From contig JAGOPY010000001.1 of the NCBI GenBank assembly GCA_017991835.1, positions 147,892-211,891 on the forward strand: DNA of 64,000 nucleotides, written 5' to 3'. Both the position numbers and the translations under genes were made by a program. Below the pieces are notes generated by a model that was not told the DNA's origin, ran no database searches, and worked only from the letters and a program-made list of their open reading frames with translations. Below are positions 1,358 to 63,723 of the stretch, in pieces. Origin of the DNA: Bacteroidales bacterium (lineage in GTDB: Bacteria; Bacteroidota; Bacteroidia; Bacteroidales; JAGOPY01). Positions within the stretch are counted from its first letter, which is position 1. The number at the start of each line of letters is the position of its first letter.

Positions 1358-1383
1358 AATTTTATCCTTTTAGAATACTGTTG

Positions 1384-14847: not shown

Positions 14848-15677
14848 GATTTATCCCGCAATTTTTTTTTACTCTCAGGTGATTTCAGGTAGTTTTCCCT
14901 GGAAGATATTTTCCTGCCAAGGCGTTTTTCAAGCTTCCGTTTTGCATCGCCGGCAATATTGCCCCCATCCCGCGCATCTTTCTTTAACTTTGGCATCCCC
15001 TGGGAGTCTTCATTTCTGGTAATTTCAGTGGTTGCGCGTTCGCCCAACATGGTAAATATCAGTTCAAAATCATTCATGTGATCCCTCAGGTTCTCCCGCT
15101 TCAGGCCTTTGAAGTTTTTATATTCCGAAGGAGTCATTCCGAAGGTAGCTTTTGAGATTTCTGCAGTTAAAATCTCATAATCCTTTTTTTCTTCAGCGCC
15201 GCGTTTCTGCCATTCATCCGTGAGTTCTTCCCGGATGGCAATTCCCCTTATACGCTTTTCAATCCAGTCGTCGCTGTAGCCTTTCAGTTTGTATAGTATC
15301 CGCGTTCTTTTGGTAGCCAGCTCGGGATTTTCGATCTCTTTGACCCGTTCGAAACCGGTTCTGGCTAACCAGCGTTTGAATGGCTCTGCTTTCGGCGATG
15401 GAATGGATTGGATGATCCTGAATATGCCTTCGGTGTCTGCACAGTCCGTTTCACGGAGCTTTCCGTCGGGAGCAGGCAATTTCAACCCGTGACAGTTTGT
15501 CACGACTTCACTTCCTTCTTCTTTCAGTCGCTGTTTCAGTTTTCGCCAGTATGCGCCGGGATCGACACTTTCTGTCAAGACTCCGCAAACATCCACTACT
15601 GAGAACCACCATTCATCCTCATGCAGAATCTTACGAACCTGCTTTCCCTTAAATAATGCAATCTTCGTCGGTTCCAT
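14844..15677 (-). CDS. Bro-N domain / DinD-like protein embedded between mod and res
   Basis: N-terminus FKGKQVRKILHEDEWWFSVVDVCGVLT...KAEPFKRWLA fits the Bro-N pattern. C-terminal KGLKRENLRDHMNDFELIF... resembles the E. coli DinD C-terminal region as I recall it. Starts 1 nt after the mod stop, and its stop overlaps the res start. Confidence 0.65.
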   Translation of the reverse strand: MEPTKIALFKGKQVRKILHEDEWWFSVVDVCGVLTESVDPGAYWRKLKQRLKEEGSEVVTNCHGLKLPAPDGKLRETDCADTEGIFRIIQSIPSPKAEPFKRWLARTGFERVKEIENPELATKRTRILYKLKGYSDDWIEKRIRGIAIREELTDEWQKRGAEEKKDYEILTAEISKATFGMTPSEYKNFKGLKRENLRDHMNDFELIFTMLGERATTEITRNEDSQGMPKLKKDARDGGNIAGDAKRKLEKRLGRKISSRENYLKSPESKKKLRDKS

Positions 15678-15678
15678 C

Positions 15679-18081
15679 TTATTCCCACCAGATTAAAGGT
15701 TTGACCAGCCGGTAATCCAGCTCTTTCGTATTGATCCTGCTTCCATCGGCAAATTCCACTTCGTTTTCCCGGATGGCTTTTATCCATTTGCCGGTAAGAT
15801 TCGATAATGTCTCCGCTACATCAATGCCCGGGTAAAGCTTTTCGAGGTCAATACTTACTTTATTTTGCTCATAATCAATCTCTAATGCCTTCAGCATCTT
15901 TTCATCTTTCAGGAAAACATACTGGCTGTATGCCTTTTCATCATTTTGATTAAACAAATCCGAGTCGTTGTAAATACACTTGTTTAAGGCCTCTTCGTAT
16001 TGCTCGAGCTCGTAGTATTTGAAGAAACCGCCGCCTGCAAATCCATTTTCTTTTGCAACAACAGTATTTCTACCATTATATAAATCCCCCTTTAATCTCG
16101 GTATTATCTCAACATAAAAATGTTCTGCTAGCTCAATTCCAATGAACTTTCTCTTTTCAATTTTCAACGATGTACAGACTGTTGTTCCACTACCAGCATA
16201 AAAATCCAAAATAATCCCTCCAGCATTCGAAGATGACTTAATTATTCTTTCTAATAATTTTTCTGGCTTTTGTGTATCAAAATTAACTCGCTCATTAGAT
16301 GTAGGTTGTTGTTGAAATGATTTAATGTCATTCCAAACTTCAACAAAAGGTGCATTTTCATCAACTGTTTGAGTTAACTCTCTCCATACTTCTGGAAATG
16401 GTCTTTGAATATCAATCAGATCACTAAGCATATTCCACACATCACCATATGGTTTCTGTTTTTCAAGTATGTCTTTTTTATAGATTCTTCTACCATGAGC
16501 CACTTGGAATAATTCACCTCTTTCATCTTTTTGTTTGAAGCTTTCAAGATACTTAAGTGTATGAGGTTGAATTACTTTATTAAAAATGCTTCTCTCAGCT
16601 TTTGAATAAAAAAGTATATTTTGGTGGCCTAGAATCCAATTATAAATAGCTCCTTTAACTTTATATCCTGAAAGGACCTGAATATCCCAAATTAATTCCC
16701 TTTTAAAACATTCTTTACCAAAAACATGGTTAGTTATTAGACGTCCCAGATAATTAGCATTCTCATCAAGATGAATGTAAAGGTTTCCATTCGATTTTAA
16801 CAAGCTATTTGAAAGACTAAGCCTGTCATTTAAAATAGACAACCATGTGCTATCTTGATAATTATCAATATAATCAAAATCATCTCCTGTATTAAATGGA
16901 GGATCTATATAAACTAAATCAATCTTGCTTTTGAATTTCAGTCGAATGGTAATCAGCGCCTGGTAGTTTTCGCTTTTGATAAGCCAGCCGTCGAGTTGCC
17001 GGTCGAGGTTGTCGAATAATGCCAGGATCTCAAGCTCAAGGCTTTTAAAATATTTCGTATCGAAAGGCAGGTGTTCAAATTTCTTGTCCCCCTGTATATC
17101 AGCGGTTTTGAATTGTTCATCCACAATACCTAATTCCTGCCATTCCTTAATTTGTTCCTTTATTCCCGGATGTTCCAGCAGTTTTTTAACCAGGCCGGCA
17201 TCGGTTATTTTATCAAGGGTAATAACGTAATTGCTGTTTTTAACGAATTTGGGCTTGTTCCATATCTTCACCAGTTCATCTTCAAACTGGGCAATGAAAT
17301 CAATGATCCTGAACGCGATGCTTTTCAGGACCTGAAGCTGGTTAACCCGTTCGCCCGACCATTCTTTCGCGCCATCCCAGAAATACTGGAAGCTCCAGAG
17401 CTTGAACTGCTCCTGCAGGAATGCCCGGGCATTCTTATTGATAAAGAAATCCACCTCGCTTTGCTTCTCAAATACCCTGAAAGCCCGTTCAAGCTGTTCT
17501 TCGGTAATCGCAATATTTTTCTTTTTCAGGTCTTTTAAAATATCTGCAGTTTTCGTAACTGTCCCTTTTTCAGAGTATTTCGTGATAAATAATATTGTTC
17601 CGTCTTCCCTTACATTCTTTAATTCAAAGATGACGGTCCTCTTTTCATTCGCTTTCTTGTTTTCAATTGTTCCGGCATCGAAATAAAACTTCAGTTCCTC
17701 GAATTCGACCGGCATACTCTTAAAAATCCGGTCCGTCTTTACATAATAGAGCATCTGGGTTTTCCAGAACAGGATCACGTCTTTCTCATCGGTGTAAACT
17801 TTTTCGTAGATATTATTGTGGAAAGGCGTGGAATTGAAATAGATAGAGCCACTTTGGGTAAAATAGCGGCTGAAAAAAGAAAATAATTTATCGAAAAGCT
17901 CATCACGAAAATGAGGGTATTGTTCTAAAGCATGGTCAATATCAGCCTGGAGCACCTTTTCAATCTGTGCATAATAACCGGATTTAATGCGCATCAGGTT
18001 AATAAATCCACCCTTACCCTCAATTTTAGCTCCTATAAAAACGTCCTGAAGCGCTTTGTAAAACTTATTTTCTTTACTCAT
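15679..18081 (-). CDS. mod: type III-like DNA methyltransferase Mod (beta-class N6A/N4C) with long N-terminal extension
   Basis: Motif IV LVYIDPPFNTGDDF precedes motif I ILDFYAGSGTT (order IV then I = beta class), with an intervening region of about 245 aa. About 390 aa lie upstream of motif IV. Confidence 0.8.
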   Translation of the reverse strand: MSKENKFYKALQDVFIGAKIEGKGGFINLMRIKSGYYAQIEKVLQADIDHALEQYPHFRDELFDKLFSFFSRYFTQSGSIYFNSTPFHNNIYEKVYTDEKDVILFWKTQMLYYVKTDRIFKSMPVEFEELKFYFDAGTIENKKANEKRTVIFELKNVREDGTILFITKYSEKGTVTKTADILKDLKKKNIAITEEQLERAFRVFEKQSEVDFFINKNARAFLQEQFKLWSFQYFWDGAKEWSGERVNQLQVLKSIAFRIIDFIAQFEDELVKIWNKPKFVKNSNYVITLDKITDAGLVKKLLEHPGIKEQIKEWQELGIVDEQFKTADIQGDKKFEHLPFDTKYFKSLELEILALFDNLDRQLDGWLIKSENYQALITIRLKFKSKIDLVYIDPPFNTGDDFDYIDNYQDSTWLSILNDRLSLSNSLLKSNGNLYIHLDENANYLGRLITNHVFGKECFKRELIWDIQVLSGYKVKGAIYNWILGHQNILFYSKAERSIFNKVIQPHTLKYLESFKQKDERGELFQVAHGRRIYKKDILEKQKPYGDVWNMLSDLIDIQRPFPEVWRELTQTVDENAPFVEVWNDIKSFQQQPTSNERVNFDTQKPEKLLERIIKSSSNAGGIILDFYAGSGTTVCTSLKIEKRKFIGIELAEHFYVEIIPRLKGDLYNGRNTVVAKENGFAGGGFFKYYELEQYEEALNKCIYNDSDLFNQNDEKAYSQYVFLKDEKMLKALEIDYEQNKVSIDLEKLYPGIDVAETLSNLTGKWIKAIRENEVEFADGSRINTKELDYRLVKPLIWWE

Positions 18082-18940: not shown

Positions 18941-21346
18941 ATGAAAAGATTTATATCTCTATTTATATTTACTCTGGCATGCATATCTCTTCATGCACAA
19001 ATAATTACCATAAAAGACAAAGAGAATTACCAACCGCTGGACCTGGTCACCCTGTCCAGCCAGGAACCGGCAGCATCGGCCATCACCAATATTAAAGGAC
19101 AGGCTGATATTTCCGCATTCACGGGATCATCCCTGATCGAGATCCGGTTGCTGGGATACGAACCGGTGAAAATAAGCTGGGCCGACCTTGCAAGAGCAGG
19201 CTTTCACCTCAACCTCAGCCAGTCTGCCATATCCCTCGACCAGGTGATCATCTCGGCTACGCGCTGGAGCCAGATGACCCGCGAGGTGCCCTCAAAGATC
19301 ACGTTGATTTCGGCCAAGGAAGTTGCCCTGCAGAATCCCCAAACGGCCGCCGACCTGCTGGGCGCCTCCGGTGAAATTTTCATCCAGAAAAGCCAGCTCG
19401 GAGGGGGCAGCCCGATGATCCGCGGTTTTGCCACCAACCGCGTTCTGCTGGTCGTCGATGGAATCCGCATGAATACGGCGATTTTCCGCAGCGGGAACCT
19501 GCAGAACGTCATCGCTCTCGATCCGTTCGCCGTGGAAAAGACCGAGATCTTCTTCGGCCCCGGTTCGGTGATCTATGGCAGCGATGCCATCGGCGGGGTC
19601 ATGAACTTCCAGACCCTCACTCCCCGTCTCTCCGTGAACGGTGAGCCTTATATATCTGGCAATGCCGTAACTCGCTTCTCATCCGCCAATAAAGAAATGA
19701 CAGGTCATTTAGATGTCAACGTGGGATGGAAAAAGTGGGCCATGGTCACAAGCTTTTCTCAATTTCATTTCTCTGATCTCAGGATGGGATCGAATGGCCC
19801 CGACGATTATCTCAGGCCGAATTACGTCATCCGCCAGGACAGCGCTGATGTGGTTATCACCAATCCCGATCCGCTGGTGCAGACCCCTACCGGATACGAC
19901 CAGACCAGCCTGATGCAGAAGGTCAGGTTTTCGCCGAATGCCAACTGGGATCTGACATACGGGATTCATTATTCGACAACCACCAACGTGTCGCGTTACG
20001 ACCGTTTGCTCAGGACCAAAAACGGCCTTCCCCGGAGCGCCGAATGGTACTACGGCCCGCAGACCTGGATGATGAACACGCTGAACATCGAGAACAAGGC
20101 TACCGGTGGAATTTACGACCGGATGAATATCCGCCTGGCGCACCAGTTGTTCGAGGAGAGCCGTCATGACCGCGACCGGAACAAAGCTACAAGATTCAAT
20201 CGCTTTGAAAAGGTGAATGCTTATTCCGTCAATATCGACTTTACGAAGATAATACGGGAAAAACACCGGCTTTTCTACGGCCTGGAATACATTTCCAACA
20301 AAGTTGAATCGACCGGGACCGACGAGGATATCACAACCGGTGAATCAATCCCGGGCCCGGCCCGTTACCCGCAGTCGACCTGGGCTTCGTACGCTGCTTA
20401 CCTGACGTACCATTACAAAATCAACGAAAAGTTTAATCTGCAGGCCGGGGCACGGTACAATCACTACACGCTGGATGCGGAATTTGATACGACCTTTTAC
20501 CCCTTCCCGTTTACGGCTGCAAATCTGAGCGACGGGGCCATTACCGGAAGCGTGGGCCTGGTGTACAACCCGGCCGAGAAATGGTCGTTCGGGGCCGACA
20601 TTTCCACAGGGTTCCGTTCGCCCAATGTGGACGACATCGGAAAAGTATTTGACTCAGAACCGGGGGCGGTGATGGTGCCCAATCCCGATCTGAGCGCCGA
20701 GTATGTGTACAATGCAGAGATTGATATTGCCCGGGTGTTCGGTAATTTCATGAAGATCGACCTGGTGGCCTACTACACCTATCTCGACCATGCCCTTGTC
20801 AGGCGGGATTTTACGCTGAACGGGCAGGACAGCATCTTTTATGACGGCGAGATGAGCCGGGTGCAGGCGATGCAGAATGCGGCTTTTGCCACCGTATATG
20901 GAGTCCAGGCTGAGGTGGAGGTGAAACTCCCGTCGGGGTTCGGATTTTCGACACAGTTCAACTACCAGAAAGGGGAAGAGGAGCTTGACGACGGCACGAA
21001 GAGCCCGCTGCGTCATGCAGCCCCCTGGTTTGGCAAATCGGGGCTGACATTTTCGGCCGACAAGCTGAAGATAGACCTGTATGCGGCATACAGCGGCGAA
21101 GTCAGTTATGAGAGCCTGCCGCCGGAGGAGCAGGGCAAAGACTACATGTATGCGAAAGACGAAGATGGCAATCCCTACTCGCCATCATGGTACACCTTGA
21201 ATTTCAAGGCCATGTACCAGATCAGCGACATTTTATCGGTCAGCGGCGGAGTGGAGAACATCACGGATGTCAGGTACAGGCCATACAGCAGCGGGATCAC
21301 GGCGCCGGGGCGGAACCTGGTGTTGTCGCTCCGGGCGAGTTTCTGA
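18941..21346 (+). CDS. TonB-dependent receptor (heme/hemoglobin-type boxes)
   Basis: Signal peptide, CarboxypepD_reg-like N-domain, plug domain (GGSPMIRGF...VVDGIRMN) and a terminal F. FRSPN and NPDL boxes resemble the FRAP/NPNL boxes of heme receptors. Confidence 0.85.
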   Translation: MKRFISLFIFTLACISLHAQIITIKDKENYQPLDLVTLSSQEPAASAITNIKGQADISAFTGSSLIEIRLLGYEPVKISWADLARAGFHLNLSQSAISLDQVIISATRWSQMTREVPSKITLISAKEVALQNPQTAADLLGASGEIFIQKSQLGGGSPMIRGFATNRVLLVVDGIRMNTAIFRSGNLQNVIALDPFAVEKTEIFFGPGSVIYGSDAIGGVMNFQTLTPRLSVNGEPYISGNAVTRFSSANKEMTGHLDVNVGWKKWAMVTSFSQFHFSDLRMGSNGPDDYLRPNYVIRQDSADVVITNPDPLVQTPTGYDQTSLMQKVRFSPNANWDLTYGIHYSTTTNVSRYDRLLRTKNGLPRSAEWYYGPQTWMMNTLNIENKATGGIYDRMNIRLAHQLFEESRHDRDRNKATRFNRFEKVNAYSVNIDFTKIIREKHRLFYGLEYISNKVESTGTDEDITTGESIPGPARYPQSTWASYAAYLTYHYKINEKFNLQAGARYNHYTLDAEFDTTFYPFPFTAANLSDGAITGSVGLVYNPAEKWSFGADISTGFRSPNVDDIGKVFDSEPGAVMVPNPDLSAEYVYNAEIDIARVFGNFMKIDLVAYYTYLDHALVRRDFTLNGQDSIFYDGEMSRVQAMQNAAFATVYGVQAEVEVKLPSGFGFSTQFNYQKGEEELDDGTKSPLRHAAPWFGKSGLTFSADKLKIDLYAAYSGEVSYESLPPEEQGKDYMYAKDEDGNPYSPSWYTLNFKAMYQISDILSVSGGVENITDVRYRPYSSGITAPGRNLVLSLRASF

Positions 21347-21357
21347 TGGAATAAAAT

Positions 21358-21412
21358 GAGACTCCATCTCGAATCGGTGAGACTCCATCTCGAATCGGTG
21401 AGATGGAGTCTC
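21358..21412. repeat. GAGACTCCATCTC composite element (2 direct units + 1 inverted unit)
   Basis: Units at 21358, 21379 (direct, 21-bp spacing, linker GAATCGGT) and 21400 (inverted, GAGATGGAGTCTC). It starts 12 nt after the TonB-dependent receptor stop. Confidence 0.85.
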
Positions 21413-21496
21413 ATTAAAAAAATATTTAACTCCATTCGATCTATCATGTAATTTTCATAATTTTAAGGCATTAGAAATTTGCCTATCGGTGAAATT

Positions 21497-23641
21497 ATGA
21501 GACTCCATCTGGTTTATTTCTGTTTTCTATGGATCAATGTACTACTCTGCCAACCAACAACAGCCCAATGGACCTGGCAAAACCCGCTACCGACGGGCAA
21601 TACGTATCGTGGCAGCAACTTCATCGATACCCAGACTGGTTGGGTCGTCGGCGGCTATGGCTGTATCCTGAAAACTTCCGATGGCGGGACCACCTGGGTG
21701 CTGCAGAACAGCGGCGTGACTACCGATCTGTATGGCGTATATTTCCTGGATGAAAACTATGGCTGGGCAGTCGGAAACGGCGCCACGATCCTGCATACCA
21801 AGAATGGCGGAAACGATTGGATGATCCAGCACGGCGGTTCCGGCTCCGGTTCTTATATCAATTCGGTCTATTTTTCTGACTCATTACACGGATGGACTGA
21901 TGGAACCAACGGTGGAGGCCAGTATTTTGAAACAACCGATGGGGGTAATACCTGGCTGTGGAGAAGCATTCCGGGCGTTTCGTATTCCTGGGAACTTTCG
22001 TCCATGTTTTTTACCGATTCCCTTTTCTTCTGGGCCCTCACGGGAGTCGACCAGATTTCGCACACGGAAGACGGCGGAAATACCTGGATAACGGGGCCAT
22101 CGCCAACCGGCTGGGGAGAGATGTTTTTCTTAAATCATGATACTGGATGGATGACCGACAGTCACCGGATTTACCGCACCACCGACAGAGCCCTGACCTG
22201 GGAAGAACAGTTGCCGATGCAGGGGCCGGCTATTTACGATCTCTTTTTTACAGACGCCCTGCATGGATGGGCAGGTGGTGAGGGCTTATTGCTAAAAACA
22301 GCGGATGGCGGAGAATCCTGGGAGAGTTACGAAACAGATGTGCTCTTCCTGGCTATTGAGTTTTCAGATATGCTGAACGGATGGGCCGTAGGAGGTTGGG
22401 CAGGAGAATTATATCATACACTTGACGGAGGAAATACGTGGGAAGATAAGCGTGCAGGCAGTGATGGGTATATCACTGCCATCAGTTTCGGTAGTCCCGA
22501 ATTTGGCATAGCAGGCTATTTTGAAGATGATTACCACTCCCTGTTGATGACAACAGACGGTGGGGCCGCATGGGACCGCCTGACGATTTTGGAAGATTCC
22601 ATACGTTGGAATGCTCTTTGGGTGGAGGATAATATCAATGCCTGGGTTTGCGGAGATGACGGAACGATAGTTCATTCGGGCGACGGCGGGCAATCCTGGC
22701 AAGTCCAGCGTGAAAATTCACCCGGAGCCTGGTTTTCTGAACTGCAGTTCCTGGATCCCCTTACCGGATTTTCTGTAGGGATTGATGCCGGATACACCAA
22801 TATCCTTCTTGCCAGGACTTACGACGGAGGGCAGAACTGGTCTACTCTGCCGTTCCATTATTCGGCTTCGCCACAGGGTATGTGGTTTACCGATCCGTTA
22901 AATGGATTTCTTGTAGCCACCGACATGAACACAGACGCACAGGTTCTCCTGACAACCTATTCCGGTGGCGAAAGCTGGATCATCACCGACCTGCCGCTCG
23001 ATGATGATGAGGATGCTTCGTCGGTTTGCTTTACCACTTCATTAAAAGGCTTTATCGGAGCCGACAATTGCATTCTGCGAACCCACGACGGAGGCCAGAA
23101 CTGGGAGAGATACAATATCAATGGAGGCCAGATATTTTCCCTTTCCTTTCCCGATTCCCTGAACGGCTGGTGTATTGGCAAAATTTATTCTGATAGAGCA
23201 GTATTGCGCACAAACAATGGCGGTGAAAGCTGGGCTGAGGTCCCTGTGATTTCCGACAATACCTTGACCGACTTAGCTTTCACAGCGCCTGACAACGGAT
23301 GGATCTGCGGATACGGCGGCCTGATCCTGAAATGGGGCGAAAACAACCCGGTCTCTATCAGGGATGATGATACGCCTGTTAATGTTTCCGTTCCGCTAAT
23401 TTTCCCGAATCCGGCAAGCCATTGGCTGAACATTGACCTTACCGTTTTCCCGGAAAACCAGAAAATATCATATAGAATCTTTGATATTCAGGGTGAGGAA
23501 ATCGGGACGGGATCATATCAAAATAAGGGAAGCTTTGACCGGTTAACGATTGATCTGGGAGATATTCAACCGGGTTTGTACATAATTGATATGGTTTCTG
23601 GAGGAGTAAAACAAGGCGGGAGGTTCGTTGTTGTTCAATGA
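21497..23641 (+). CDS. BNR/Ycf48-like beta-propeller repeat protein, T9SS cargo
   Basis: Many DGG.TW repeats. C-terminal T9SS sorting domain (FPNPASHWLNIDL...GLYIIDMV...). Start moved to ATG 21497 (MRLHLVYFCFLWINVLLCQ signal peptide). Confidence 0.75.
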   Translation: MRLHLVYFCFLWINVLLCQPTTAQWTWQNPLPTGNTYRGSNFIDTQTGWVVGGYGCILKTSDGGTTWVLQNSGVTTDLYGVYFLDENYGWAVGNGATILHTKNGGNDWMIQHGGSGSGSYINSVYFSDSLHGWTDGTNGGGQYFETTDGGNTWLWRSIPGVSYSWELSSMFFTDSLFFWALTGVDQISHTEDGGNTWITGPSPTGWGEMFFLNHDTGWMTDSHRIYRTTDRALTWEEQLPMQGPAIYDLFFTDALHGWAGGEGLLLKTADGGESWESYETDVLFLAIEFSDMLNGWAVGGWAGELYHTLDGGNTWEDKRAGSDGYITAISFGSPEFGIAGYFEDDYHSLLMTTDGGAAWDRLTILEDSIRWNALWVEDNINAWVCGDDGTIVHSGDGGQSWQVQRENSPGAWFSELQFLDPLTGFSVGIDAGYTNILLARTYDGGQNWSTLPFHYSASPQGMWFTDPLNGFLVATDMNTDAQVLLTTYSGGESWIITDLPLDDDEDASSVCFTTSLKGFIGADNCILRTHDGGQNWERYNINGGQIFSLSFPDSLNGWCIGKIYSDRAVLRTNNGGESWAEVPVISDNTLTDLAFTAPDNGWICGYGGLILKWGENNPVSIRDDDTPVNVSVPLIFPNPASHWLNIDLTVFPENQKISYRIFDIQGEEIGTGSYQNKGSFDRLTIDLGDIQPGLYIIDMVSGGVKQGGRFVVVQ

Positions 23642-23716
23642 GACTCCATCTCGAACCGGTGAGATGCCATCTGCTTTCACTCGAGACTCCATCTCGAAAA
23701 ATTGAGATGGAGTCTC
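23640..23716. repeat. GAGAYNCCATCTS composite element (3 direct + 1 inverted)
   Basis: Units at 23640, 23661, 23683 and inverted at 23704. The first unit overlaps the TGA stop at 23639-23641. The terminal hairpin is GAGACTCCATCTC-gaaaaatt-GAGATGGAGTCTC. Confidence 0.85.
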
Positions 23717-23775
23717 ACAGTGCACGGATATGCCAGGCGGAACAAATGATTGATATATAGCTTTATAAGTAGATT

Positions 23776-24441
23776 ATGAAAAAGACCGTATTCACACTAC
23801 TGTTGCTGGGAATAGTTCCATTTACCTTACAATCTCAATTCTTAAAAGGGACAATCCTTAAAACAAAACCCTTTCAGGATTTCGTCGCTTATAATCCGAC
23901 CTTTGGAATGGAAAAAACGGTTGGTAAGTTATTCAGCGCAGAGCTTGAATTTATGTACCGTAACAGGAGCTGGAATGTATCCGGTGGAGAATGGGATCTT
24001 GGCCGCTTTTACGATGCCGGCGGATTCAAAATTGTGATCGGATCAAGGATCTATTTTGGAAAAACAAACAGGAACCTGGATCAAGAAACTCAAAAAGCTC
24101 CGTTTGCCTGGTATGGAGCCATCCAGTTGGGCTATAACCTCAGCACTACGTATAATGTCGACCGGAAAGCTACAGTTTCAGGCATTTATATGTATACGGC
24201 TGACATAGATAAAAACTGGCTGGAGCTGAATATCGGTATCGGACGGCAATTTTACTTATTCAAAACAATAACCCTGGATCTTAACCTGGGGCCCTCCATT
24301 TATTTTCCACACCAGGAAAAAACAACCATTACAAAAAGTGAAGATTTGAGCGAAATCGGGACGACGAAAACCGAGGATTTCAATTTTGGACGAATTATCA
24401 GGCCAAATCTAATCCTATCATTAGGATATTATTTTAAATAA
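23776..24441 (+). CDS. hypothetical outer-membrane beta-barrel-like protein
   Basis: Signal peptide, alternating aromatic/hydrophilic strands, and a C-terminal LSLGYYFK. No specific family recognised. Confidence 0.5.
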   Translation: MKKTVFTLLLLGIVPFTLQSQFLKGTILKTKPFQDFVAYNPTFGMEKTVGKLFSAELEFMYRNRSWNVSGGEWDLGRFYDAGGFKIVIGSRIYFGKTNRNLDQETQKAPFAWYGAIQLGYNLSTTYNVDRKATVSGIYMYTADIDKNWLELNIGIGRQFYLFKTITLDLNLGPSIYFPHQEKTTITKSEDLSEIGTTKTEDFNFGRIIRPNLILSLGYYFK

Positions 24442-24477
24442 TAACAGCGGCCAATCCCGCATCAAAACAAAATAGCC

Positions 24478-25932
24478 ATGAAAAAGTTTTATCTATTATG
24501 CCTGCTTCTCATACTGTTCATGATTACCCGGGCACAATCGTATATCCCTTTACCGGATACCAATGCTTATTGGAATGAGATAAAATTCTACCAGGGCCAG
24601 TGCGACCCGCCGGATTTTTGCAGGTACACCTGCTATTTCCAGGGGGATACAGTTCTCAATTCTTTATCTTATCATAAAGTTTATAAAAATGACAGTTATG
24701 AAATTTCCTATTCCGGAGGATTAAGGCAGGATGGTGAAAAAGTCTATTACTGGGATCGGGACTGCGATTCGCCGGTACTTCTGTACGATTTCGGGCTGAC
24801 CGTCGGGGATTCCATAGCCCTGGCCTGCATGCTATGCGATGAAGAGCCGCTGTACGCCCAGGTAGTCTCCGTCGACTCGGTGATGATCGGGGATATGAGC
24901 TACCGGAAAAGGATCAATTTCACCTATGGTTATTCCTATTCGTGGATCGAAGGGATCGGAAGCGTGTACGGCTTGCTGTATCCGTATTATTCCTGCATTT
25001 TATGTGTCTGTTACCAGAAACTGGTCTGCTTCGAGCAGGATGGCCAGGTCCTTTACCTGAATGAATCGGATGTTCCCTGTTTCAATTTCGTCAATCCACC
25101 GGGAGACATCGATCCGGCCTCCGAATGGCGCGTGGATTCGTGGACGGCCGAACCGGATTATTCGACGAATTCATACTACCGGGATTTTATAGATGGGGAT
25201 ACCATCATCAATACAATAAGATATCATAAGGTTTACCAATCAGGATATACCTATTATCTGAATTATCCTCCGGGATATTATTATTATTATGAAGATGTAT
25301 TTCATGGGCTGTTGAGGGAAGAAGATAACCGCTGGTATACAATTAATTACAATGGCCAGGATGAGTTGCTGTACGATTTTACCCTGGATGTAGGCGATAC
25401 TGTTTACTCGGCGTTTACTTTTATTTTTGAAGATCCGATCATCGTAACGGGCGTCGATTCGGTCCTGGTTGGCGGAGATTACAAAAGGCGCCTGGAATTG
25501 AATTCTGAAGAAGGCGGCGGAGCGGAATACATTATAGAGGATATTGGGGCCACTTCCGGCCTGTTCGAAAACATGTTCTTCTTCGAATGGGGATCGGAAC
25601 TGGTTTGCTTTGCTAAGAACGGCGTTTCTCTGTGGGGAGCCTCAACGGAAGAGTGCGACCTGGCCGTGGCTATCGGGGAAGCAGAAACCCATCCGAACGC
25701 GTGCTTTATTTCACCCAACCCGGCAACTGGCCATTTGATCCTGACATTATACGGAAGCACCGGAGAAGCATCTTTCACCCTGATCAATCTTTTGGGAAAT
25801 GTGGTCATGGAGGGCTCATTTACTTCTCCATCCATTAATAAAATTGATTTAAATACTTATTCTCCGGGTATCTACTTAGCGGTTATCATAACAGCAGATA
25901 CAAGGGAAACCATCAAGGTGGTTAAAAGATAG
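24478..25932 (+). CDS. hypothetical T9SS cargo protein
   Basis: Signal peptide. C-terminal sorting domain CFISPNPATGHLILTL...SPGIYLAVI...IKVVKR. Confidence 0.7.
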   Translation: MKKFYLLCLLLILFMITRAQSYIPLPDTNAYWNEIKFYQGQCDPPDFCRYTCYFQGDTVLNSLSYHKVYKNDSYEISYSGGLRQDGEKVYYWDRDCDSPVLLYDFGLTVGDSIALACMLCDEEPLYAQVVSVDSVMIGDMSYRKRINFTYGYSYSWIEGIGSVYGLLYPYYSCILCVCYQKLVCFEQDGQVLYLNESDVPCFNFVNPPGDIDPASEWRVDSWTAEPDYSTNSYYRDFIDGDTIINTIRYHKVYQSGYTYYLNYPPGYYYYYEDVFHGLLREEDNRWYTINYNGQDELLYDFTLDVGDTVYSAFTFIFEDPIIVTGVDSVLVGGDYKRRLELNSEEGGGAEYIIEDIGATSGLFENMFFFEWGSELVCFAKNGVSLWGASTEECDLAVAIGEAETHPNACFISPNPATGHLILTLYGSTGEASFTLINLLGNVVMEGSFTSPSINKIDLNTYSPGIYLAVIITADTRETIKVVKR

Positions 25933-25974
25933 TTGCCTCTTTTATGCTTCGAGCAAGATGGATTGTAGGTGATC

Positions 25975-26050
25975 GAGACGCCATCTCAAATCGGTGAGAC
26001 TCCATCTCCTTTCATCGAGACTCCATCTCGAAAAATTGAGATGGAGTCTC
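25975..26050. repeat. GAGAYNCCATCTS composite element (3 direct + 1 inverted), near-copy of 23640-23716
   Basis: Units at 25975, 25996, 26017 and inverted at 26038. It has the same linkers (aaatcggt, ctttcatc, gaaaaatt) as the 23640 element. Confidence 0.85.
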
Positions 26051-26173
26051 ATTAATTAAAAAAATCTACATAAATATCTAGACTTTTCCTATATTTTTGC
26101 TTATATTTGACCCTCAATCCTTTACTAAAGGATAATTCAACCTTATTATCAATTAATCCAAAAAATCTTACGT

Positions 26174-27274
26174 ATGACACAGATTAAAATTGCTTCATTC
26201 AACCTGGAAAATCTTTTCACCCGGCCGGTTGCGATGAACCAGGACACCGATGCCGCCGGAGCCGCCGCTATCGAAGATCATGCGCTGGCCAACACCATCA
26301 TCAATAAAGAGGTTTACACTGACAGCGACAAACAAACACTCATTGAATTGTCGGGTAAATACAAATGGCACACGCTCAACCCTCCGAAGAATGCGCTGGT
26401 TCAGTTGCAGAAGATCAGAGGATCGCTGTTCCGGAAACCCAAAAACGGCCCCCTGGAAGTGGTTGCCAAAGGCCGCGACAGCTGGGTGGGATGGTTTGAG
26501 CTCCTTACCGAAGACGTTAGCTGGAAAGCCACCTATAACACCGGCAGGGTTATCGATGCCGTCAGGCCCGATATTTTGATCACGGTTGAGGTTGAAAACA
26601 GGCCGACCCTGGGCCGTTTCAACGAACAGATCCTCAAAGCCCATTTCGGTTTCTCCTATAAGCATTTTATGGTCATCGACGGCAATGATATGCGGGGAAT
26701 TGACCTGGGGATCATGAGCCAATACCCGATCGTGGAGATTCGTAGCCATGTGGATCTGCCGACGAACGGCGGGCATGTTTTTTCCCGTGACTGCCCGGAA
26801 TACGACATCATCCTGCCGGAAAATAAAAGGATCGTCATCATCCCGAATCACCTGAAATCCAAAAGAAACGGCGATGACACAGAATCCAGGGAGAGAAGGA
26901 AACTCCAGGCGGATTCAGCCCATGCTATCGCTTTATCGGCATTGAACAGGTCGGATCTGGTGCTGATCGGTGGCGATCTGAATGACACACCCGGCAGCGA
27001 ACCGCTGCAAGGTTTATTCAACGACGGATTCACCGACGTGAGCTCTCATCCCGACTACCCGGCCGACCGGCCAGGGACATACAACACCGGCCTCGCCGGT
27101 AATAAGATCGATTACCTGATCATGTCGCCTGCGCTGGCAGGCAAATTGCAAACCACCGGGATCGAGCGTAGGGGATCCTACCACCCTAACACGTGGGAAC
27201 CTTTCGACACGGTGACGAAAAAATCGGAAGAAGCCTCCGATCATCATTTGATCTGGGGGACATTTGAGGTTTGA
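26174..27274 (+). CDS. endonuclease/exonuclease/phosphatase (EEP) family protein
   Basis: IASFNLENLF at the N-terminus, GGDLNDTP, SDHHLIW at the C-terminus. No signal peptide. Confidence 0.75.
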   Translation: MTQIKIASFNLENLFTRPVAMNQDTDAAGAAAIEDHALANTIINKEVYTDSDKQTLIELSGKYKWHTLNPPKNALVQLQKIRGSLFRKPKNGPLEVVAKGRDSWVGWFELLTEDVSWKATYNTGRVIDAVRPDILITVEVENRPTLGRFNEQILKAHFGFSYKHFMVIDGNDMRGIDLGIMSQYPIVEIRSHVDLPTNGGHVFSRDCPEYDIILPENKRIVIIPNHLKSKRNGDDTESRERRKLQADSAHAIALSALNRSDLVLIGGDLNDTPGSEPLQGLFNDGFTDVSSHPDYPADRPGTYNTGLAGNKIDYLIMSPALAGKLQTTGIERRGSYHPNTWEPFDTVTKKSEEASDHHLIWGTFEV

Positions 27275-27280
27275 TGGGTT

Positions 27281-27408
27281 GAGATGCCATCTGGTTGCAT
27301 TGAGATGCCATCTCAATATCGTGAGACTCCATCTGGTTGCCACGAGACTCCATCTCGAAGAAAAATTTCACTTTAAGATGGAGTCTCACTTAACTGAGAT
27401 GGAGTCTC
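27281..27408. repeat. GAGAYNCCATCTS composite element (4 direct + 2 inverted, nested hairpin)
   Basis: Direct units at 27281, 27302, 27323 and 27344 (exact 21-bp period). Inverted units at 27375 and 27396 (also 21 bp apart). Inner and outer arms can pair as a long interrupted hairpin. Confidence 0.85.
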
Positions 27409-27450: not shown

Positions 27451-30018
27451 TTGAAATCAAAATCACTCCATATCGCCTATCTTCTTATCTTCCTCACCCT
27501 TTTCACCCATCCCGCCCACAGCCAGCTCGAAGCCTGGGGCGATACCACCATCTGCCAGGGCGGATCAGCCCAGCTCTTTGCCAACGGCGATGGCGTCAGC
27601 TACTTCTGGAGCTCCTATCCTACCGACCCTTCGCTCCTGATCCCACAGCAACAAAACCCGGTCGTTTCGCCCCAGGTAAGCACCATGTATGTCGTCCAGT
27701 CGAATATTGCTACCGGTAACCTCATCCTCAACGGCTCGTTTGAACTCGGCGTGATGGGTTTTAACAGCGAATACGTCAACAACCAGGTCAGCATTGTGGC
27801 AGAAGGGACCTATGCCGTGGTGAACGACGCCCATACGGTGCACCCGAATTTCTACTGCAACGAAGACCACACCAGCGGCAACGGGAAATTTATGGCGGTG
27901 AACGGCGCCGGGGTAGCCAATGTCAAGGTCTGGTATCTCTCCCTGAACAACATCCAGCCCGGCAGCAAATATGAATTCTCGACCTGGATCACCAGCCTCC
28001 ACGCTACCAACCCGGCCATCCTCCAGTTCAGCATCAACGGGGAACTCATGGGAGAACCTTTCCAGGCTTATCCATACACCTGCGACTGGTACCAGTTCTT
28101 CCACATCTGGGAAGCCGGCGACAATACCCAGGCCACTATCAGTATTGTCAACCAGAATACGATCCTGAGCGGTAACGATTTCGCCCTCGACGACATCTCG
28201 TTTGCCACTGTTCTTGTTTACTTCGATACGGTCTACGTGGAGGTCCTTCCCCAGTTTACCTCCACTTTTGTTGCACCTCAAGCTGCCTGTACCCGCGAAA
28301 TTGTCACCGTGACCTACCAGGGAAATGCCCCGGATACCGCGATTTTTAACTGGGATTTTGGAGATGCCTCCGTACTTTCCGGTAACGGACCTGGTCCTTA
28401 CGAAATCGTGCATAACTCTATTGGGAATAATACGATCAGCCTCTGTGTGGAAGGTGATGGATGTGCCTCCGATACGGCCACTGCCGGTGTTTTGGTCGGC
28501 GAAAGCCCGATGGTGGCAGCCACCGCCGATGCGTCCATCATCCCTTACGGATCTTCCACGACGTTGCATGGCAGCTATTCGGGCGGCACCGGCCCTTGTG
28601 CCTGGAGCTGGGAGCCGGCAGCGTTGCTGACTGATCCGGGCTCGCTGAATCCCCAGACAAACGCACTATTTGCCACCACCGGATTTATCCTGGCCGTTAC
28701 CGACCAGGCTGCCAATTGCACCGGATACGACACGGTCATTGTACAGGTAACCGGCGGTCCGCTGGGGGTAAACATCGCAGCCGATCCGGAAGCCGTATGT
28801 ATCGGCCAGCAGACGACTTTAACCGCTTTACCCTACGGAGGTACTGAAAACTATAGCTATTCCTGGTCATCCTCCCCACCCGGCTTTACATCCGATCTCC
28901 CGGAAGTCACCGTTCAACCGGCTTCTACGACAACCTATTCCGTTTCCGTTAGCGACGGGCTGAGTGAAATGACTGCATCGGTCACAATTACCGTTCATCC
29001 GAATCCCCAGCCGGATGCCGGCCCTGACCAGTTGATCCCATACGGCACCAATACCACGCTATCGGCCACTGCATCAGGAGGTAGTGGCAACTATGCATAC
29101 CACTGGGAACCGGCCGCTTTGGTCTCAGACCCGGATATACCCGTTACGCAGACCCAGAACCTGATCATCGCTACCGTTTTTACCCTGACGGTCACCGACC
29201 TTGAAACAGGCTGTGTCAGCAATCCCGATCCCATTACCATCAGCATCGACGGCGGCCCGCTGGCGGTCGTCATCACCAGCGACAAGCCAAAGATCTGCCG
29301 GGGCGAGGAGGCCGTTCTCACCGCACATGCCAGCGGCGGCAACCAGGGAAACTATATCTACTCCTGGAGCGATAACCTGGGCAATTCATATCCTTCGCTG
29401 GCCCAGATCAAGGTATCGCCGGAAGATACGACGGTCTTTCATGTTTCGGTCGACGATGGGTACAATGTCAATGGGTATGATTTCACCCTGGTCGTCTTTC
29501 CGTCGGCTGAATTCGGATGGGCTGACGGCTCTGACCATGTGTTTGCCTGTCCGAATGATTCGGTGTTGCTGCAACCTGTTCCCCGTGATCCTTCCTGGAA
29601 TTTTCTCTGGTCGAACGGCGCGACTACCCCCGAAATCTTTGTGACCGTCACGGGAATTGGCTTCAGCCTGCAAGATTATTCACTAACGACTACCACAGTG
29701 GATGGATGCACATTTACCGATACGATCCTGGTCTCTTTCGATTTTTCATATTGCTCAGGTATTGAGGATGAAGGAGAAACAACGGTGATGATCAGTCCGA
29801 ACCCTGCCTCGGGGGCTTTCAAAGTTTCCTGGAAAAAAACCGGTGAATTTGAGGCGATTAGAGTTTATAACGGTTTGGGTAAGATGATTTCACAGAAGGA
29901 AACCGGTCATATCAATCATGTTATTTTCGATCATTTCAATTACTCCCCCGGACTCTATTACGTCCATTTGATCGGTGCCAAATCATCAGAAACCCGGAAA
30001 GTCCTCCTAATGCCCTGA
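27451..30018 (+). CDS. large T9SS cargo protein with repeated Ig-like modules
   Basis: Signal peptide. Jelly-roll/CBM-like N-domain (NGSFELG...DDISF). Repeated modules of about 90 aa (GGxxxYxYxW.P). C-terminal ISPNPASGAFKVSW...GLYYVHL. Confidence 0.7.
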   Translation: MKSKSLHIAYLLIFLTLFTHPAHSQLEAWGDTTICQGGSAQLFANGDGVSYFWSSYPTDPSLLIPQQQNPVVSPQVSTMYVVQSNIATGNLILNGSFELGVMGFNSEYVNNQVSIVAEGTYAVVNDAHTVHPNFYCNEDHTSGNGKFMAVNGAGVANVKVWYLSLNNIQPGSKYEFSTWITSLHATNPAILQFSINGELMGEPFQAYPYTCDWYQFFHIWEAGDNTQATISIVNQNTILSGNDFALDDISFATVLVYFDTVYVEVLPQFTSTFVAPQAACTREIVTVTYQGNAPDTAIFNWDFGDASVLSGNGPGPYEIVHNSIGNNTISLCVEGDGCASDTATAGVLVGESPMVAATADASIIPYGSSTTLHGSYSGGTGPCAWSWEPAALLTDPGSLNPQTNALFATTGFILAVTDQAANCTGYDTVIVQVTGGPLGVNIAADPEAVCIGQQTTLTALPYGGTENYSYSWSSSPPGFTSDLPEVTVQPASTTTYSVSVSDGLSEMTASVTITVHPNPQPDAGPDQLIPYGTNTTLSATASGGSGNYAYHWEPAALVSDPDIPVTQTQNLIIATVFTLTVTDLETGCVSNPDPITISIDGGPLAVVITSDKPKICRGEEAVLTAHASGGNQGNYIYSWSDNLGNSYPSLAQIKVSPEDTTVFHVSVDDGYNVNGYDFTLVVFPSAEFGWADGSDHVFACPNDSVLLQPVPRDPSWNFLWSNGATTPEIFVTVTGIGFSLQDYSLTTTTVDGCTFTDTILVSFDFSYCSGIEDEGETTVMISPNPASGAFKVSWKKTGEFEAIRVYNGLGKMISQKETGHINHVIFDHFNYSPGLYYVHLIGAKSSETRKVLLMP

Positions 30019-30113: not shown

Positions 30114-31073
30114 ATGGAAGATCAGGCAAAACTCTCATTCTTTAAGAAGTGGTGGATATCGGCCAGGCCGTTTTCATTCCCCGCTTCCACCATGCCCGTT
30201 ATTTTTGGGACGGTGCTGGCCTATGTTTATGGCGGACACGAATTCAAGCCGCTGCTGTTTATTTTAGCTTTTATAGCGATGGTCATCCTTCACTCGGGGG
30301 CAAATATTCTGAGCGATATATTTGATTTTGAGAAAGGGCTCGATAAGGTCCCCGGCCCGACCAGCGGCGGAGTTGTCAGGGGAATTATTTCCATACGCGA
30401 AGCATGGATCGGTTCTGTCTCCATGCTGGTTTTCGGGACGATCATCGGGCTGTACCTGACCTGGGTGAGCGGACCCTGGTTGCTGGCTATCGGTATTCTC
30501 GGCCTTTTAGTGGGTACGTTTTACACCTCCCATTCCATGGTCAACATGAAGTACAACGGGCTTGGCGACCTGGCCGTATTCCTCAATTTCGGAATCCTGG
30601 GCTCGCTGGGCGCCTATTATGTGCAATCCGGCGCTCTATCATGGATTCCTGTCATCTGGGCCATCCCGATGTCGATGCTGGTCATTGCCATCCTGCATGC
30701 CAATAACTGGAGGGATATCCAGTCGGACAAAGAGATCAAGATATTTACCATCGCCTCATTACTGGGAGATAAGAATTCATTACGGTATTATGGCGTTTTG
30801 ATTTACGGACCGTTTATCATCATAGTGGGCCTGATCCTGGTCCCGTTTTTCCTGTTCCCGAACATGACCGCCATGCCGTTTACATTCCTGATCACGCTGG
30901 CCGCGCTTCCGCTGGCTTTCAGGGTCTGGAAAAAAGCGCTGAACCGGAAAACACCGGCCCAGCCGCTTGATTTCATTGCCCTCGACGGCGCATCGGCGCA
31001 ATTGAACCTGCTTTTCGGATCGCTCTGTACCCTGGCCCTGATCCTCCAGGCTGTTATTGACTGGGCAAAATGA
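30114..31073 (+). CDS. menA: 1,4-dihydroxy-2-naphthoate polyprenyltransferase (UbiA family)
   Basis: Polytopic membrane protein with DIFDFEKGLD and NNWRDIQSD motifs typical of MenA. Start set at the first ATG (MEDQAKL) rather than the TTG at 30063. Confidence 0.75.
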   Translation: MEDQAKLSFFKKWWISARPFSFPASTMPVIFGTVLAYVYGGHEFKPLLFILAFIAMVILHSGANILSDIFDFEKGLDKVPGPTSGGVVRGIISIREAWIGSVSMLVFGTIIGLYLTWVSGPWLLAIGILGLLVGTFYTSHSMVNMKYNGLGDLAVFLNFGILGSLGAYYVQSGALSWIPVIWAIPMSMLVIAILHANNWRDIQSDKEIKIFTIASLLGDKNSLRYYGVLIYGPFIIIVGLILVPFFLFPNMTAMPFTFLITLAALPLAFRVWKKALNRKTPAQPLDFIALDGASAQLNLLFGSLCTLALILQAVIDWAK

Positions 31074-31165
31074 GATGGCATCTCAAATCAACGTCGTATT
31101 GTTTATAACTAACTATAAATAAGTTTATTGGCTTCAACAAAATAGGGATTCGGGATGCCATCTCA
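31072..31165. repeat. pair of GAGATGSCATCTC palindromes about 81 bp apart
   Basis: GAGATGGCATCTC at 31072-31084 abuts the menA TGA. GGGATGCCATCTC at 31152-31164 contains the ATG of the CPBP gene. Confidence 0.7.
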
Positions 31166-35013: not shown

Positions 35014-35046
35014 GAAAGGGATGGCGTCCCTCGGGACCTCGTCCCG

Positions 35047-35068
35047 AAGGGATGGCGTCCCTTTTTTT
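35047..35068 (+). terminator. intrinsic terminator after the 32041..35013 cargo gene
   Basis: AAGGGA-tggcg-TCCCTT stem-loop followed by a T run. It is preceded by a direct copy of GGGATGGCGTCCC and a GGGAC-ctc-GTCCC hairpin. Confidence 0.6.
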
Positions 35069-35102
35069 GAGATGGAGTCTCATTTAAACGAGACTCCATC
35101 TC
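35069..35102. repeat. GAGATGGAGTCTC / GAGACTCCATCTC hairpin element
   Basis: 13-bp arms at 35069-35081 and 35090-35102 with an 8-nt loop, immediately after a separate terminator. Confidence 0.85.
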
Positions 35103-38545: not shown

Positions 38546-38584
38546 ATTGAGATGGAGTCTCAATTTTTGAGACTCCATCTCAAT
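38546..38584. repeat. 39-nt near-perfect palindrome built from the same 13-mer
   Basis: ATTGAGATGGAGTCTCAA-ttt-TTGAGACTCCATCTCAAT: 18-bp arms and a 3-nt loop. It lies in the divergent gap between the MscS gene and the 38662 cargo gene. Confidence 0.85.
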
Positions 38585-38661
38585 ACCAACTCTTTTTCCT
38601 CCTACTTTTGATAGTCGATTTCAGGAAAAACTCCTGGTCATCATTTAACCAAAACTGTATT

Positions 38662-46634: not shown

Positions 46635-47078
46635 TTATCCCGGCAACAAATGTTCCTCGATCTCCAGGAAAATAATCTCCAGGTTTTTGATCTTTCCCTT
46701 TGGAATTTCATAGGCAGCCAGTGCCTGCGGTACCTTCTGGATTTTCCCGGTGATCTCCTTTTTTAAAGCCGCAGGCAAAATATCGTTCACGATCAGGAAA
46801 AAATCGGCCCCCTTCTCAGAAGGGATCAAACGCCCATCCTCATGATAATTGGAAACCAGGTAATAATCCCGCCTCTCTTCCGGATGACTGTACAGATAAA
46901 AGGAATAACCGCGCGATTCGGCTTCCTCGCCCGATATCAGGTCATCCAGCCTTTTAAAATGAAAACCCAGGCTTTCATTCATAAAGAAGGCGAACCGGTA
47001 GTCCTTCATATGGCAGGCGATCCCTATCGTTGTGTAATCGTAGGAGCTGCCACCGGTGAGTTTGATCTTCCTGCCCAT
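46635..47078 (-). CDS. small Bacteroidetes-type hypothetical protein (possibly IPExxxVDY family)
   Basis: 147 aa. YDYTTIGIACHMKDYRFAFFMNESLGFHFKRLDDL resembles that family from memory. The start overlaps the GH97 stop by 1 nt. Confidence 0.45.
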   Translation of the reverse strand: MGRKIKLTGGSSYDYTTIGIACHMKDYRFAFFMNESLGFHFKRLDDLISGEEAESRGYSFYLYSHPEERRDYYLVSNYHEDGRLIPSEKGADFFLIVNDILPAALKKEITGKIQKVPQALAAYEIPKGKIKNLEIIFLEIEEHLLPG

Positions 47079-63630: not shown

Positions 63631-63723
63631 GAGATGGCATCTCAAATCGATCGTCCAATCTTCTGTTTCGCTTGCCAGATAAACCATTCCTGATTTTAAT
63701 CAGATATTCTGAGATGCCATCTC
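63631..63723. repeat. pair of GAGATGSCATCTC palindromes 80 bp apart
   Basis: GAGATGGCATCTC at 63631-63643 and GAGATGCCATCTC at 63711-63723, in the divergent gap between dnaG and the last ORF. Confidence 0.8.

Follow-up and report, generated by a model that had tools for sequence, protein, structure and literature searches.

In an accepted REP–RAYT system, or REPtron, the gene for a REP-associated tyrosine transposase (RAYT) is flanked by a dispersed repetitive extragenic palindromic (REP) sequence, and the sequence of the repeat tracks that of the transposase (PMC3733652, PMC5581495, PMC6006769). In Escherichia coli, the single-copy HUH/Y1 homologue TnpAREP (PDB 4ER8) is flanked by high-copy intergenic REPs, which are hairpins of 20–40 nt with a 5′ GTAG foot. 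They stand alone, in inverted pairs or in tandem clusters of regular spacing, for the most part shortly downstream of genes; the bacterial interspersed mosaic element (BIME) arrays alternate in orientation. REP dimers in head–head, tail–tail and head–tail arrangement have been described, as have tandem clusters (PMC3733652). Pseudomonas REPINs, doublets of ~100 nt made of two inverted REPs, replicate as a whole; they persist for long periods and co-evolve with a vertically inherited single-copy RAYT (Bertels and Rainey; PMC5581495). In Bacteroidetes, RAYTs have been described with atypical flanking repeats that lack GTAG, are weakly structured and have further copies in the genome (PMC6006769). 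Here we analyse phased arrays of a 13-nt unit that lie between genes in a 64,000-nt stretch of a Bacteroidales bacterium (assembly GCA_017991835.1, contig JAGOPY010000001.1, positions 147,892 to 211,891 of the forward strand), which we call the window. The arrays are probably clusters of a REP-type repeat, the cognate DNA of a single-copy, vertically inherited RAYT that would be a domesticated HUH/Y1 enzyme of the TnpAREP type.

The unit is far more frequent in the window than chance would allow, as an earlier note on this DNA had claimed. Matching GAGAYNCCATCTS on both strands with at most one mismatch gave 33 matches, against 1.17 ± 1.19 in 100 dinucleotide-preserving shuffles of the window (maximum 6; 0 of 100 reached 33). 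These matches collapse to 28 distinct positions because palindromic variants match both strands. Twenty-four positions are intergenic, two fall on start codons and two lie inside coding sequence, and clusters occur at about 1 per 6 kb; copy numbers here and below refer to the 64-kb window and to 8-kb loci of relatives. The common unit, GAGACTCCATCTC, is an imperfect dyad (GAGAC-TCC-ATCTC), and palindromic variants take the form GAGAT-GSC-ATCTC. All 13 core positions are nearly invariant, and positions outside the core carry little information. Between neighbouring units the linker is fixed at 8–9 nt, a 21–22-nt register, in all three relative orientations; start-to-start distances between adjacent units in the window were 21 bp (12 cases), 20 bp (2), 22 bp (1), 31 bp (2), 80 bp (2) and 99 bp (1), and the 21-bp spacing reported before was thus recovered. 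Four arrays occupy four successive gaps at exactly the coordinates first given for them; in each, direct copies in series are followed by one or two inverted ones:

21358-21412, plus strand: putative REP-type array 1, direct units at 21358 and 21379, inverted unit at 21400, 21-bp spacing; both linkers gaatcggt; starts 12 nt past the stop codon (21346) of a TonB-dependent receptor (TBDR) gene; folds at −19.4 kcal/mol, z −6.6.
23640-23716, plus strand: putative REP-type array 2, direct units at 23640, 23661 and 23683 (the middle one GAGATGCCATCTG), inverted unit at 23704; its first unit is overlapped by the TGA stop of the upstream gene (23639-23641).
25975-26050, plus strand: putative REP-type array 3, direct units at 25975, 25996 and 26017 (the first GAGACGCCATCTC), inverted unit at 26038; lies 43 nt past the stop codon at 25932.
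27281-27408, plus strand: putative REP-type array 4, direct units at 27281, 27302, 27323 and 27344, forming two 42-nt dimers, inverted units at 27375 and 27396; starts 7 nt past the stop codon at 27274; nested hairpin at −32.5 kcal/mol, z −6.5.

Linkers recur between units, as had been noticed, and arrays 2 and 3 are ~88–91% identical over ~78 nt. Folded as single strands, the four arrays form hairpins with 13-bp stems (−19 to −32 kcal/mol, z −4.5 to −6.6), as expected from their inverted copies, and adjacent inverted units give 13-bp stems. The description of the unit itself as a 13-bp dyad needs correction: a lone GAGACTCCATCTC is a weak dyad with a stem of just 4 bp (−1 kcal/mol); the variants GAGATGSCATCTC and GGGACGGAGTCCC have stems of 5–6 bp. 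Unit elements usually begin 0–43 nt past a stop codon and are found in tandem, convergent and divergent gaps alike.

One of the checks proposed in the earlier note, for a RAYT- or IS200-like partner gene, gave a positive answer: related genomes contain a RAYT gene with the same units, in the same register, on both sides. Loci from other genomes or contigs are given L-numbers, and the relatives' unit loci span ~8 kb. In L012, a gene of ~193 aa (1214-1795, minus strand) has unit clusters on both sides in the aligned orthologous loci of two species. Its product matches Pfam Y1_Tnp (PF01797) with 25.3 bits (cutoff 23) and NCBIfam NF047646, 'REP-associated tyrosine transposase', with E = 2e-15 and 56.8 bits, below the equivalog cutoff of 80. 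It carries the HUH motif PNHFHFL and the tyrosine motif YIHKNP, and the sole PDB relative of the RAYT profile is 4ER8, E. coli TnpAREP. Many of the 2466 homologues bear the JGI name 'REP element-mobilizing transposase RayT'; within the clade, proteins are 193–201 aa long and have the motifs NHFH, [FY]Q, YIH[KLFRV]NP and YSS. Units stand on both RAYT flanks in L012, L081, L170, L171-173, L174, L175/176, L177, L180 and L090, and homologues at 88, 84, 76, 73, 68, 67 and 53% identity were all flanked upstream and downstream. These clusters consist of 13-nt units at 21–22-nt spacing (21 nt in 57 cases and 22 nt in 19, in RAYT loci chosen without regard to spacing). Some RAYT frames run into the first downstream unit, so that their C terminus, '..EMESL', is translated GAGATGGAGTCTC.

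The flanking unit changes with the RAYT lineage. The closest RAYTs have GAGACTCCATCTC; a hybrid, GGGACTCCATCTC, accompanies the RAYT at 73% identity, and GGGACTCCATCCC or GGGACGGAGTCCC those at 68–53%. With RAYT identity falling from 100% to 36%, the series runs from GAGA..TCTC through GGGA..TCTC and GGGA..TCCC to other dyads; unit positions 2 and 12 change together, and the dyad is thereby kept. RAYTs at 36–48% identity are flanked in the same layout by dyads of their own (AGACCTAACAGGTCT, AGACCCTAAGGGTCT, ACCTGTCAGGT and GGGTTGCCAACCC-like). Most loci fetched, L012 and L081 included, share the gene order Methyltransf_24, RAYT, gyrB-like, and this constant chromosomal position is the pattern predicted by vertical inheritance of a single-copy gene. 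An exception is L175, which has two RAYT copies: 20 head-to-tail units directly follow one and 12 follow the other. At 743-3294 and 6630-7119 of L175 there is also, beside these two genes, a higher-order tandem repeat of ~200 bp in 13 copies with two or three units per copy. Upstream of every close RAYT, a conserved stretch of ~45 nt (..CGGGTATAaatca..TTTTCCGGATtaac..) lies between two unit pairs (L012 1867-1918, L081 3055-3106, L170 956-986, L171 5880-5934); it is probably the RAYT promoter or leader.

The association of the units with the RAYT and the evolutionary pattern of this association are direct observations. The lineage has a RAYT, dispersed repeats flank it, repeat and RAYT co-vary, and the extragenic copy number is high; the unit that flanks the RAYT is also dispersed in the metagenome-assembled genomes (MAGs) CAVPBC and CAWGKX. 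Of the roles that had been suggested for the arrays, that of a REP-like mobile element is the one which the flanking units and their co-variation support.

We scanned species-representative genomes with a degenerate unit pattern. Among the matches listed, the identical 13-mer was found in pairs in several Bacteroidales MAGs (CAVPBC01, CAWGKX01, CAZAZE01 and a Prolixibacteraceae MAG). There the core is invariant and the 8-nt linkers vary between sites; neighbouring units are often direct, often convergent and often divergent, and clusters occupy tandem, convergent and divergent intergenic regions. Extra clusters are present inside the relatives' 8-kb loci. Two species with ~77% identical coding DNA have five orthologous cluster pairs in the same gaps, with 196 of 208 core positions identical (94%) but only 28 of 72 linker positions (39%), and orthologous clusters differ in unit number (3 versus 4, 3 versus 2). 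At one such site (L040 418 versus L057 7441), a unit is flipped between the two species and its neighbour is unchanged. Strains 98% identical to the window have the same four arrays with the same unit numbers, 0 changes in ~221 core positions and 10 changes in linkers, 8 of them in the array at 21358. Shared orthologous sites together with these changes show that the arrays are old as sites and dynamic as units and linkers. A more distant relative of the phosphatase-family gene that precedes array 4 has no units within 13 kb. The window lacks a unit pair that another species has beside its orthologue of the minus-strand ORF at ~46640-47070, just downstream of a GH97 gene, where synteny differs. 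Short-read contigs of the same organism begin inside array 3, and contigs break at arrays.

The degenerate scan also returned unrelated dyads of other phyla, which we set aside. Among them is a direct repeat, TTGATAC-TGAGACTCAATCTCA twice, in Opitutales/Verrucomicrobiota loci (L007, L008, L021, L022, L029 and ~25 others), which occurs once per locus with a 22–23-bp period, within a divergent promoter region and immediately before TTGTCAA. It has the look of a conserved operator or activator site and differs from the REP core by one base, apparently by coincidence.

As in E. coli, a single-copy HUH/Y1 homologue is flanked by high-copy intergenic repeats. These show the same arrangements (single copies, inverted pairs, tandem clusters at regular intervals) and, for the most part, the same location shortly downstream of genes. 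Unlike those of E. coli, the units are 13 nt long with a 4–5-bp dyad and no conserved foot, they form long head-to-tail arrays, and their linkers are fixed in length and hypervariable in sequence. The vertical single-copy RAYT, the long persistence of the repeats and their co-evolution with the RAYT are shared with Pseudomonas, but neighbours here are commonly direct, convergent or divergent, unlike REPINs, and arrays reach 20 units. Within the same phylum, the repeats of Bacteroidetes subclass 2.6 (Bertels group 5; PMC6006769) likewise lack GTAG, are more weakly structured and have copies elsewhere in the genome. The subclass 2.6 protein has 179 aa, against ~195–200 aa here, and shares the YIHxNP tyrosine motif and the YSS tail motif; two of its three motifs (NH[LIV]H, WQ, YIH[QN]NP) differ from those found here (NHFH, [FY]Q), and its listed repeats are individual hairpins with 8–10-bp stems, none of which resembles GAGACTCCATCTC or GGGACTCCATCCC. 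The closest motif set, NH[YF]H / FQ / Y[IV]HLNP, is that of the TIRYTs of TIRtrons, subclass 2.1 (PMC3733652; Quentin et al. 2018), whose flanking repeats need not be hairpins and in some species form moderately abundant families as dimers or clusters. Subclass 2.1 proteins, however, have a median of 238 aa and a C-terminal helix-turn-helix-like domain, and their terminal inverted repeats contain GGGGWSAS; the RAYT here has ~200 aa and no long C-terminal extension, and GGGGWSAS is missing from its flanks. Quentin et al. saw no REP-like sequences beside subclass 2.1 genes (PMC6006769), whereas the repeats here are abundant and phased. By its motifs alone, the RAYT would fit subclass 2.1 best and subclass 2.6 next. 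The kind of system is well known; what is unusual in this family is the head-to-tail layout of its arrays. Neither the REP tables of Di Nocera 2013 nor Table S1 of Quentin 2018 lists the unit sequence, and the statement in the earlier note that no described family has this sequence held there.

If it works like E. coli TnpAREP and the IS200/IS605 enzymes, this RAYT would recognise units on single-stranded DNA, either as the 4–5-bp mini-hairpin of one unit or as the 13-bp hairpin of two inverted neighbours. It would nick and rejoin at units and so seed units or dimers in new intergenic sites. Arrays would then grow and shrink locally through slippage or unequal exchange, which would yield head-to-tail arrays with constant spacing and fast-changing linkers; a 42–43-nt higher-order periodicity in the array at 27281 and in L175 points to duplication of dimers. 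Alternatively, a new unit may be joined at a fixed offset from a resident one. Both this joining and conversion among arrays are conjectures. For the host, likely side effects are strong hairpins at mRNA 3′ ends past stop codons and donated stop and start codons; these are consequences of the repeats and not the reason for their existence.

Several observations weigh against this reading. There is no RAYT in the 64-kb window, and the organism's own RAYT was not located, so the link between repeat and RAYT rests on relatives; of the closest RAYTs looked up, none came from samples that hold the organism of the window, and a metagenome scan with the RAYT profile returned only relatives at ≤53% identity. 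A GT[AG]G or CGTC tag at the hairpin foot is not conserved in the unit flanks; the GTAG foot is also missing from the atypical repeats of Bacteroidetes subclass 2.6 and class 3 (PMC6006769). A lone unit forms a very weak hairpin and purely direct arrays form no long ones, which makes recognition of single-strand hairpins less obvious than for classical REPs. The retention of clusters at the same sites in species that are ~77% identical fits preservation by the host as well as mobility, and no described REP mechanism predicts linkers of fixed length and hypervariable sequence. One might suppose that the 8–9-nt linker records how the RAYT works, either through stepwise addition of units, each placed at a set distance from one already there, or through cooperative binding to adjacent units in duplex DNA; the linker would then keep its length while its sequence evolves faster than the DNA around it. 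The host would retain phased arrays as boundary or insulator elements between transcription units of one gene each, preferentially those for proteins secreted by the type IX secretion system (T9SS). We consider this doubtful; if true, it would make this a REP system that spreads in a distinct way and has a function at the level of the host.

Regular spacing can also be read as the mark of a protein on duplex DNA. The units would then be operator-like sites for a regulator, for a nucleoid or insulator protein or for the RAYT itself, a protein that oligomerises along sites two helical turns apart and delimits transcription units, with the RAYT link secondary. In favour of such a protein, unit centres lie 20–22 bp apart whether a pair is direct, convergent or divergent, the 13-bp core hardly varies at any position while its flanks are low in information, and cores but not linkers are kept at orthologous sites. 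Divergent promoter regions, the region upstream of the RAYT among them, lie inside several four-unit modules, and in the window two entire intergenic regions are enclosed by palindromic units 80 bp apart. The helical phasing proposed in the earlier note, however, holds only for neighbours; the longer gaps (31, 80 and 99 bp in the window; 64–68 and 92 bp elsewhere) are not multiples of 21 bp and are out of phase, which argues against a model with all sites on one face of the helix. One cluster per ~6 kb is far denser than a normal regulon, most arrays lie 0–43 nt past stop codons and not at promoters, in gaps of every type, and linkers turn over faster than neighbouring DNA. The unit sequence also tracks the RAYT across many lineages, the accepted signature of REP–RAYT systems (PMC6006769, PMC5581495). 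We therefore regard an operator array as unlikely, and the one-face binding array suggested before, including an iteron or cooperative operator array, was not borne out.

The location of the arrays right past same-strand stop codons, with strong folds, suits a main role as terminators or stabilisers of mRNA 3′ ends for single-gene units such as T9SS cargo, in which case the repetition would come from convergent selection for hairpins. E. coli REPs are reported to stabilise upstream mRNA and, when near stop codons, to affect translation. T runs follow some copies in relatives (for example L032, L004 and L012), and genes with a T9SS tail are enriched beside clusters. Yet the terminator role once suggested for the four arrays is unsupported because none has a T tract; none passed a terminator-like scan, in which the sole unit site to pass was 38584-38546 on the minus strand. 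Purely direct arrays of up to 20 units (L175) form no terminator hairpin, units stand in either orientation to the upstream gene and also between divergent genes, and convergent selection would not keep a single 13-nt sequence constant from one species to the next. This makes the explanation quite unlikely, although an effect of 3′ hairpins on mRNA stability or translation is plausible as a by-product. Highly improbable, in our judgement, are DNA-uptake signals or a genome-wide 'self' tag of the kind represented by the Neisseria DNA uptake sequence (DUS) and the Pasteurellaceae uptake signal sequence (USS). An exact ~13-mer is common to several species with lineage-specific 'dialects', and units are frequent, in both orientations and often in inverted pairs after genes. 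Unlike USS and DUS, however, they hardly occur in coding DNA; they also form arrays with fixed spacing, and they flank the RAYT and co-vary with it. We know of no uptake-signal system in this group. A REP-type repeat tied to a vertically inherited RAYT is the reading we prefer to all of these.

Other candidates were rejected. The internal sequences of four-unit modules are unrelated within one genome (L017 versus L075), which speaks against a miniature inverted-repeat transposable element (MITE), and no target-site duplications are visible at the edges of the four arrays. Segmental duplication was dismissed as an origin for the similar arrays, since their flanking genes have nothing in common but the T9SS tail. 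A phage origin found no match, and none of the viral contigs carries the unit pair. A CRISPR-like reading was rejected on size (13-nt repeats with 8-nt 'spacers'). When the literature was searched for the core, every match was a human primer derived from Alu; with an A run after it, GAGACTCCATCTC is identical to the 3′ end of human Alu after CpG decay. The likeness is coincidental, since the arrays lie between bacterial genes in many MAGs, and human contamination was rejected, but text or k-mer screens could mislabel the arrays in this way.

A TBDR gene (18941-21346) lies upstream of array 1, followed by a BNR-repeat protein with a T9SS sorting tail (21497-23641). The interval 23776-25932, previously taken as one gene, in fact holds two ORFs in the same frame with TAA TAA between them: a 221-aa protein with no Pfam hit (23776-24441) and a 484-aa T9SS-tail protein with a new signal peptide of its own (24478-25932). 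Next come an endonuclease/exonuclease/phosphatase protein without a T9SS tail (26174-27274), a T9SS-tail protein (27451-30018) and genes for UbiA and an Rce1-like protein. The rest of the window is ordinary chromosome (dnaG, rnc, fabF, purN, an RND pump). No transposase was found in the 64 kb, and no Rfam family scored at gathering thresholds anywhere in the window. On the minus strand (11911-18081), a Type III restriction-modification-like operon for a ResIII/helicase protein, a protein with a Bro-N domain and an N6/N4 DNA methylase showed no connection with the repeats.

The earlier claim that arrays enclose T9SS cargo stands in part. All five genes in the window with a T9SS tail (the Por_Secre_tail domain) adjoin a cluster; these five, however, also lie next to each other. 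Across independent loci of other MAGs, where gene calling was crude, Por_Secre_tail was found in 6 of 45 cluster-adjacent genes and in 2 of 128 others (Fisher p = 0.004). The gene at 26174-27274 has no tail, and most cluster neighbours are unrelated genes such as gyrB-like, pheS, UbiA and dnaG. The link is a modest enrichment, a preference and not a defining property, and perhaps reflects stand-alone genes with roomy spacers.

Outside the four arrays, the window holds these units:

21499-21511, plus strand: solo unit GAGACTCCATCTG on the first codons of the BNR/T9SS gene (ATG 21497, M-R-L-H-L).
31072-31084, unstranded: palindromic unit TGAGATGGCATCTCA, overlapping the UbiA stop codon (31071-31073).
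31152-31164, plus strand: unit variant GGGATGCCATCTC, containing the ATG (31155) of the Rce1-like gene.
35018-35061, minus strand: GGGA-type unit pair (GGGACGCCATCCC; GGGATGGCGTCCC twice), units at 35018 and 35049, 31 bp apart; begins 5 nt past the stop codon at 35013, encloses a cgggac/gtcccg dyad and is followed by a T run.
35069-35102, unstranded: divergent-facing unit pair (inverted, then direct), units at 35069 and 35090, 21 bp apart; hairpin at −15.5 kcal/mol, z −7.8.
38549-38581, unstranded: pair of units facing away from each other, at 38549 and 38569, 20 bp apart, in the 73-bp gap between a divergent MscS-like gene and a T9SS-cargo gene; hairpin at −19.1 kcal/mol.
42043-42055, unstranded: palindromic unit GAGATGGCATCTC inside the coding region for the T9SS C-terminal domain of 38608-42159, either an intragenic copy or a chance match.
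63631-63643 and 63711-63723, unstranded: two palindromic units, lying upstream of minus-strand dnaG and ahead of the next gene on the plus strand.

Two TGA stops and two ATG starts lie in or against units (21497, 23639-23641, 31071-31073 and 31155); at the first of these, ATG-AGA-CTC-CAT-CTG reads MRLHL, and a JGI gene call in L181 also uses the ATG corresponding to 21497. Palindromic units TGAGATGSCATCTCA form two pairs exactly 80 bp apart (31072/31152 and 63631/63711), each bracketing a whole intergenic region (UbiA to the Rce1-like gene; dnaG to the next gene), and the sequences inside the two pairs are unrelated. The GGGA-type pair directly adjoins the GAGA-type pair at 35069/35090. Since the GGGA-type subfamily also flanks RAYTs of other lineages, the genome of the window may hold two subfamilies or a relic of one.

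REP–RAYT systems are well studied in Proteobacteria and barely described in Bacteroidota, where examples have been noted just as 'atypical' structures. This family offers a searchable 13-nt core, compensatory co-evolution with its RAYT and orthologous sites that can be compared across species. In practice, the arrays break short-read assemblies and overlap start and stop codons; in Bacteroidales MAGs, gene callers and regulon predictions that rely on motifs can be led astray by them. Their architecture, with fixed-length, fast-changing linkers and up to 20 head-to-tail units, could help to show how RAYTs spread repeats.

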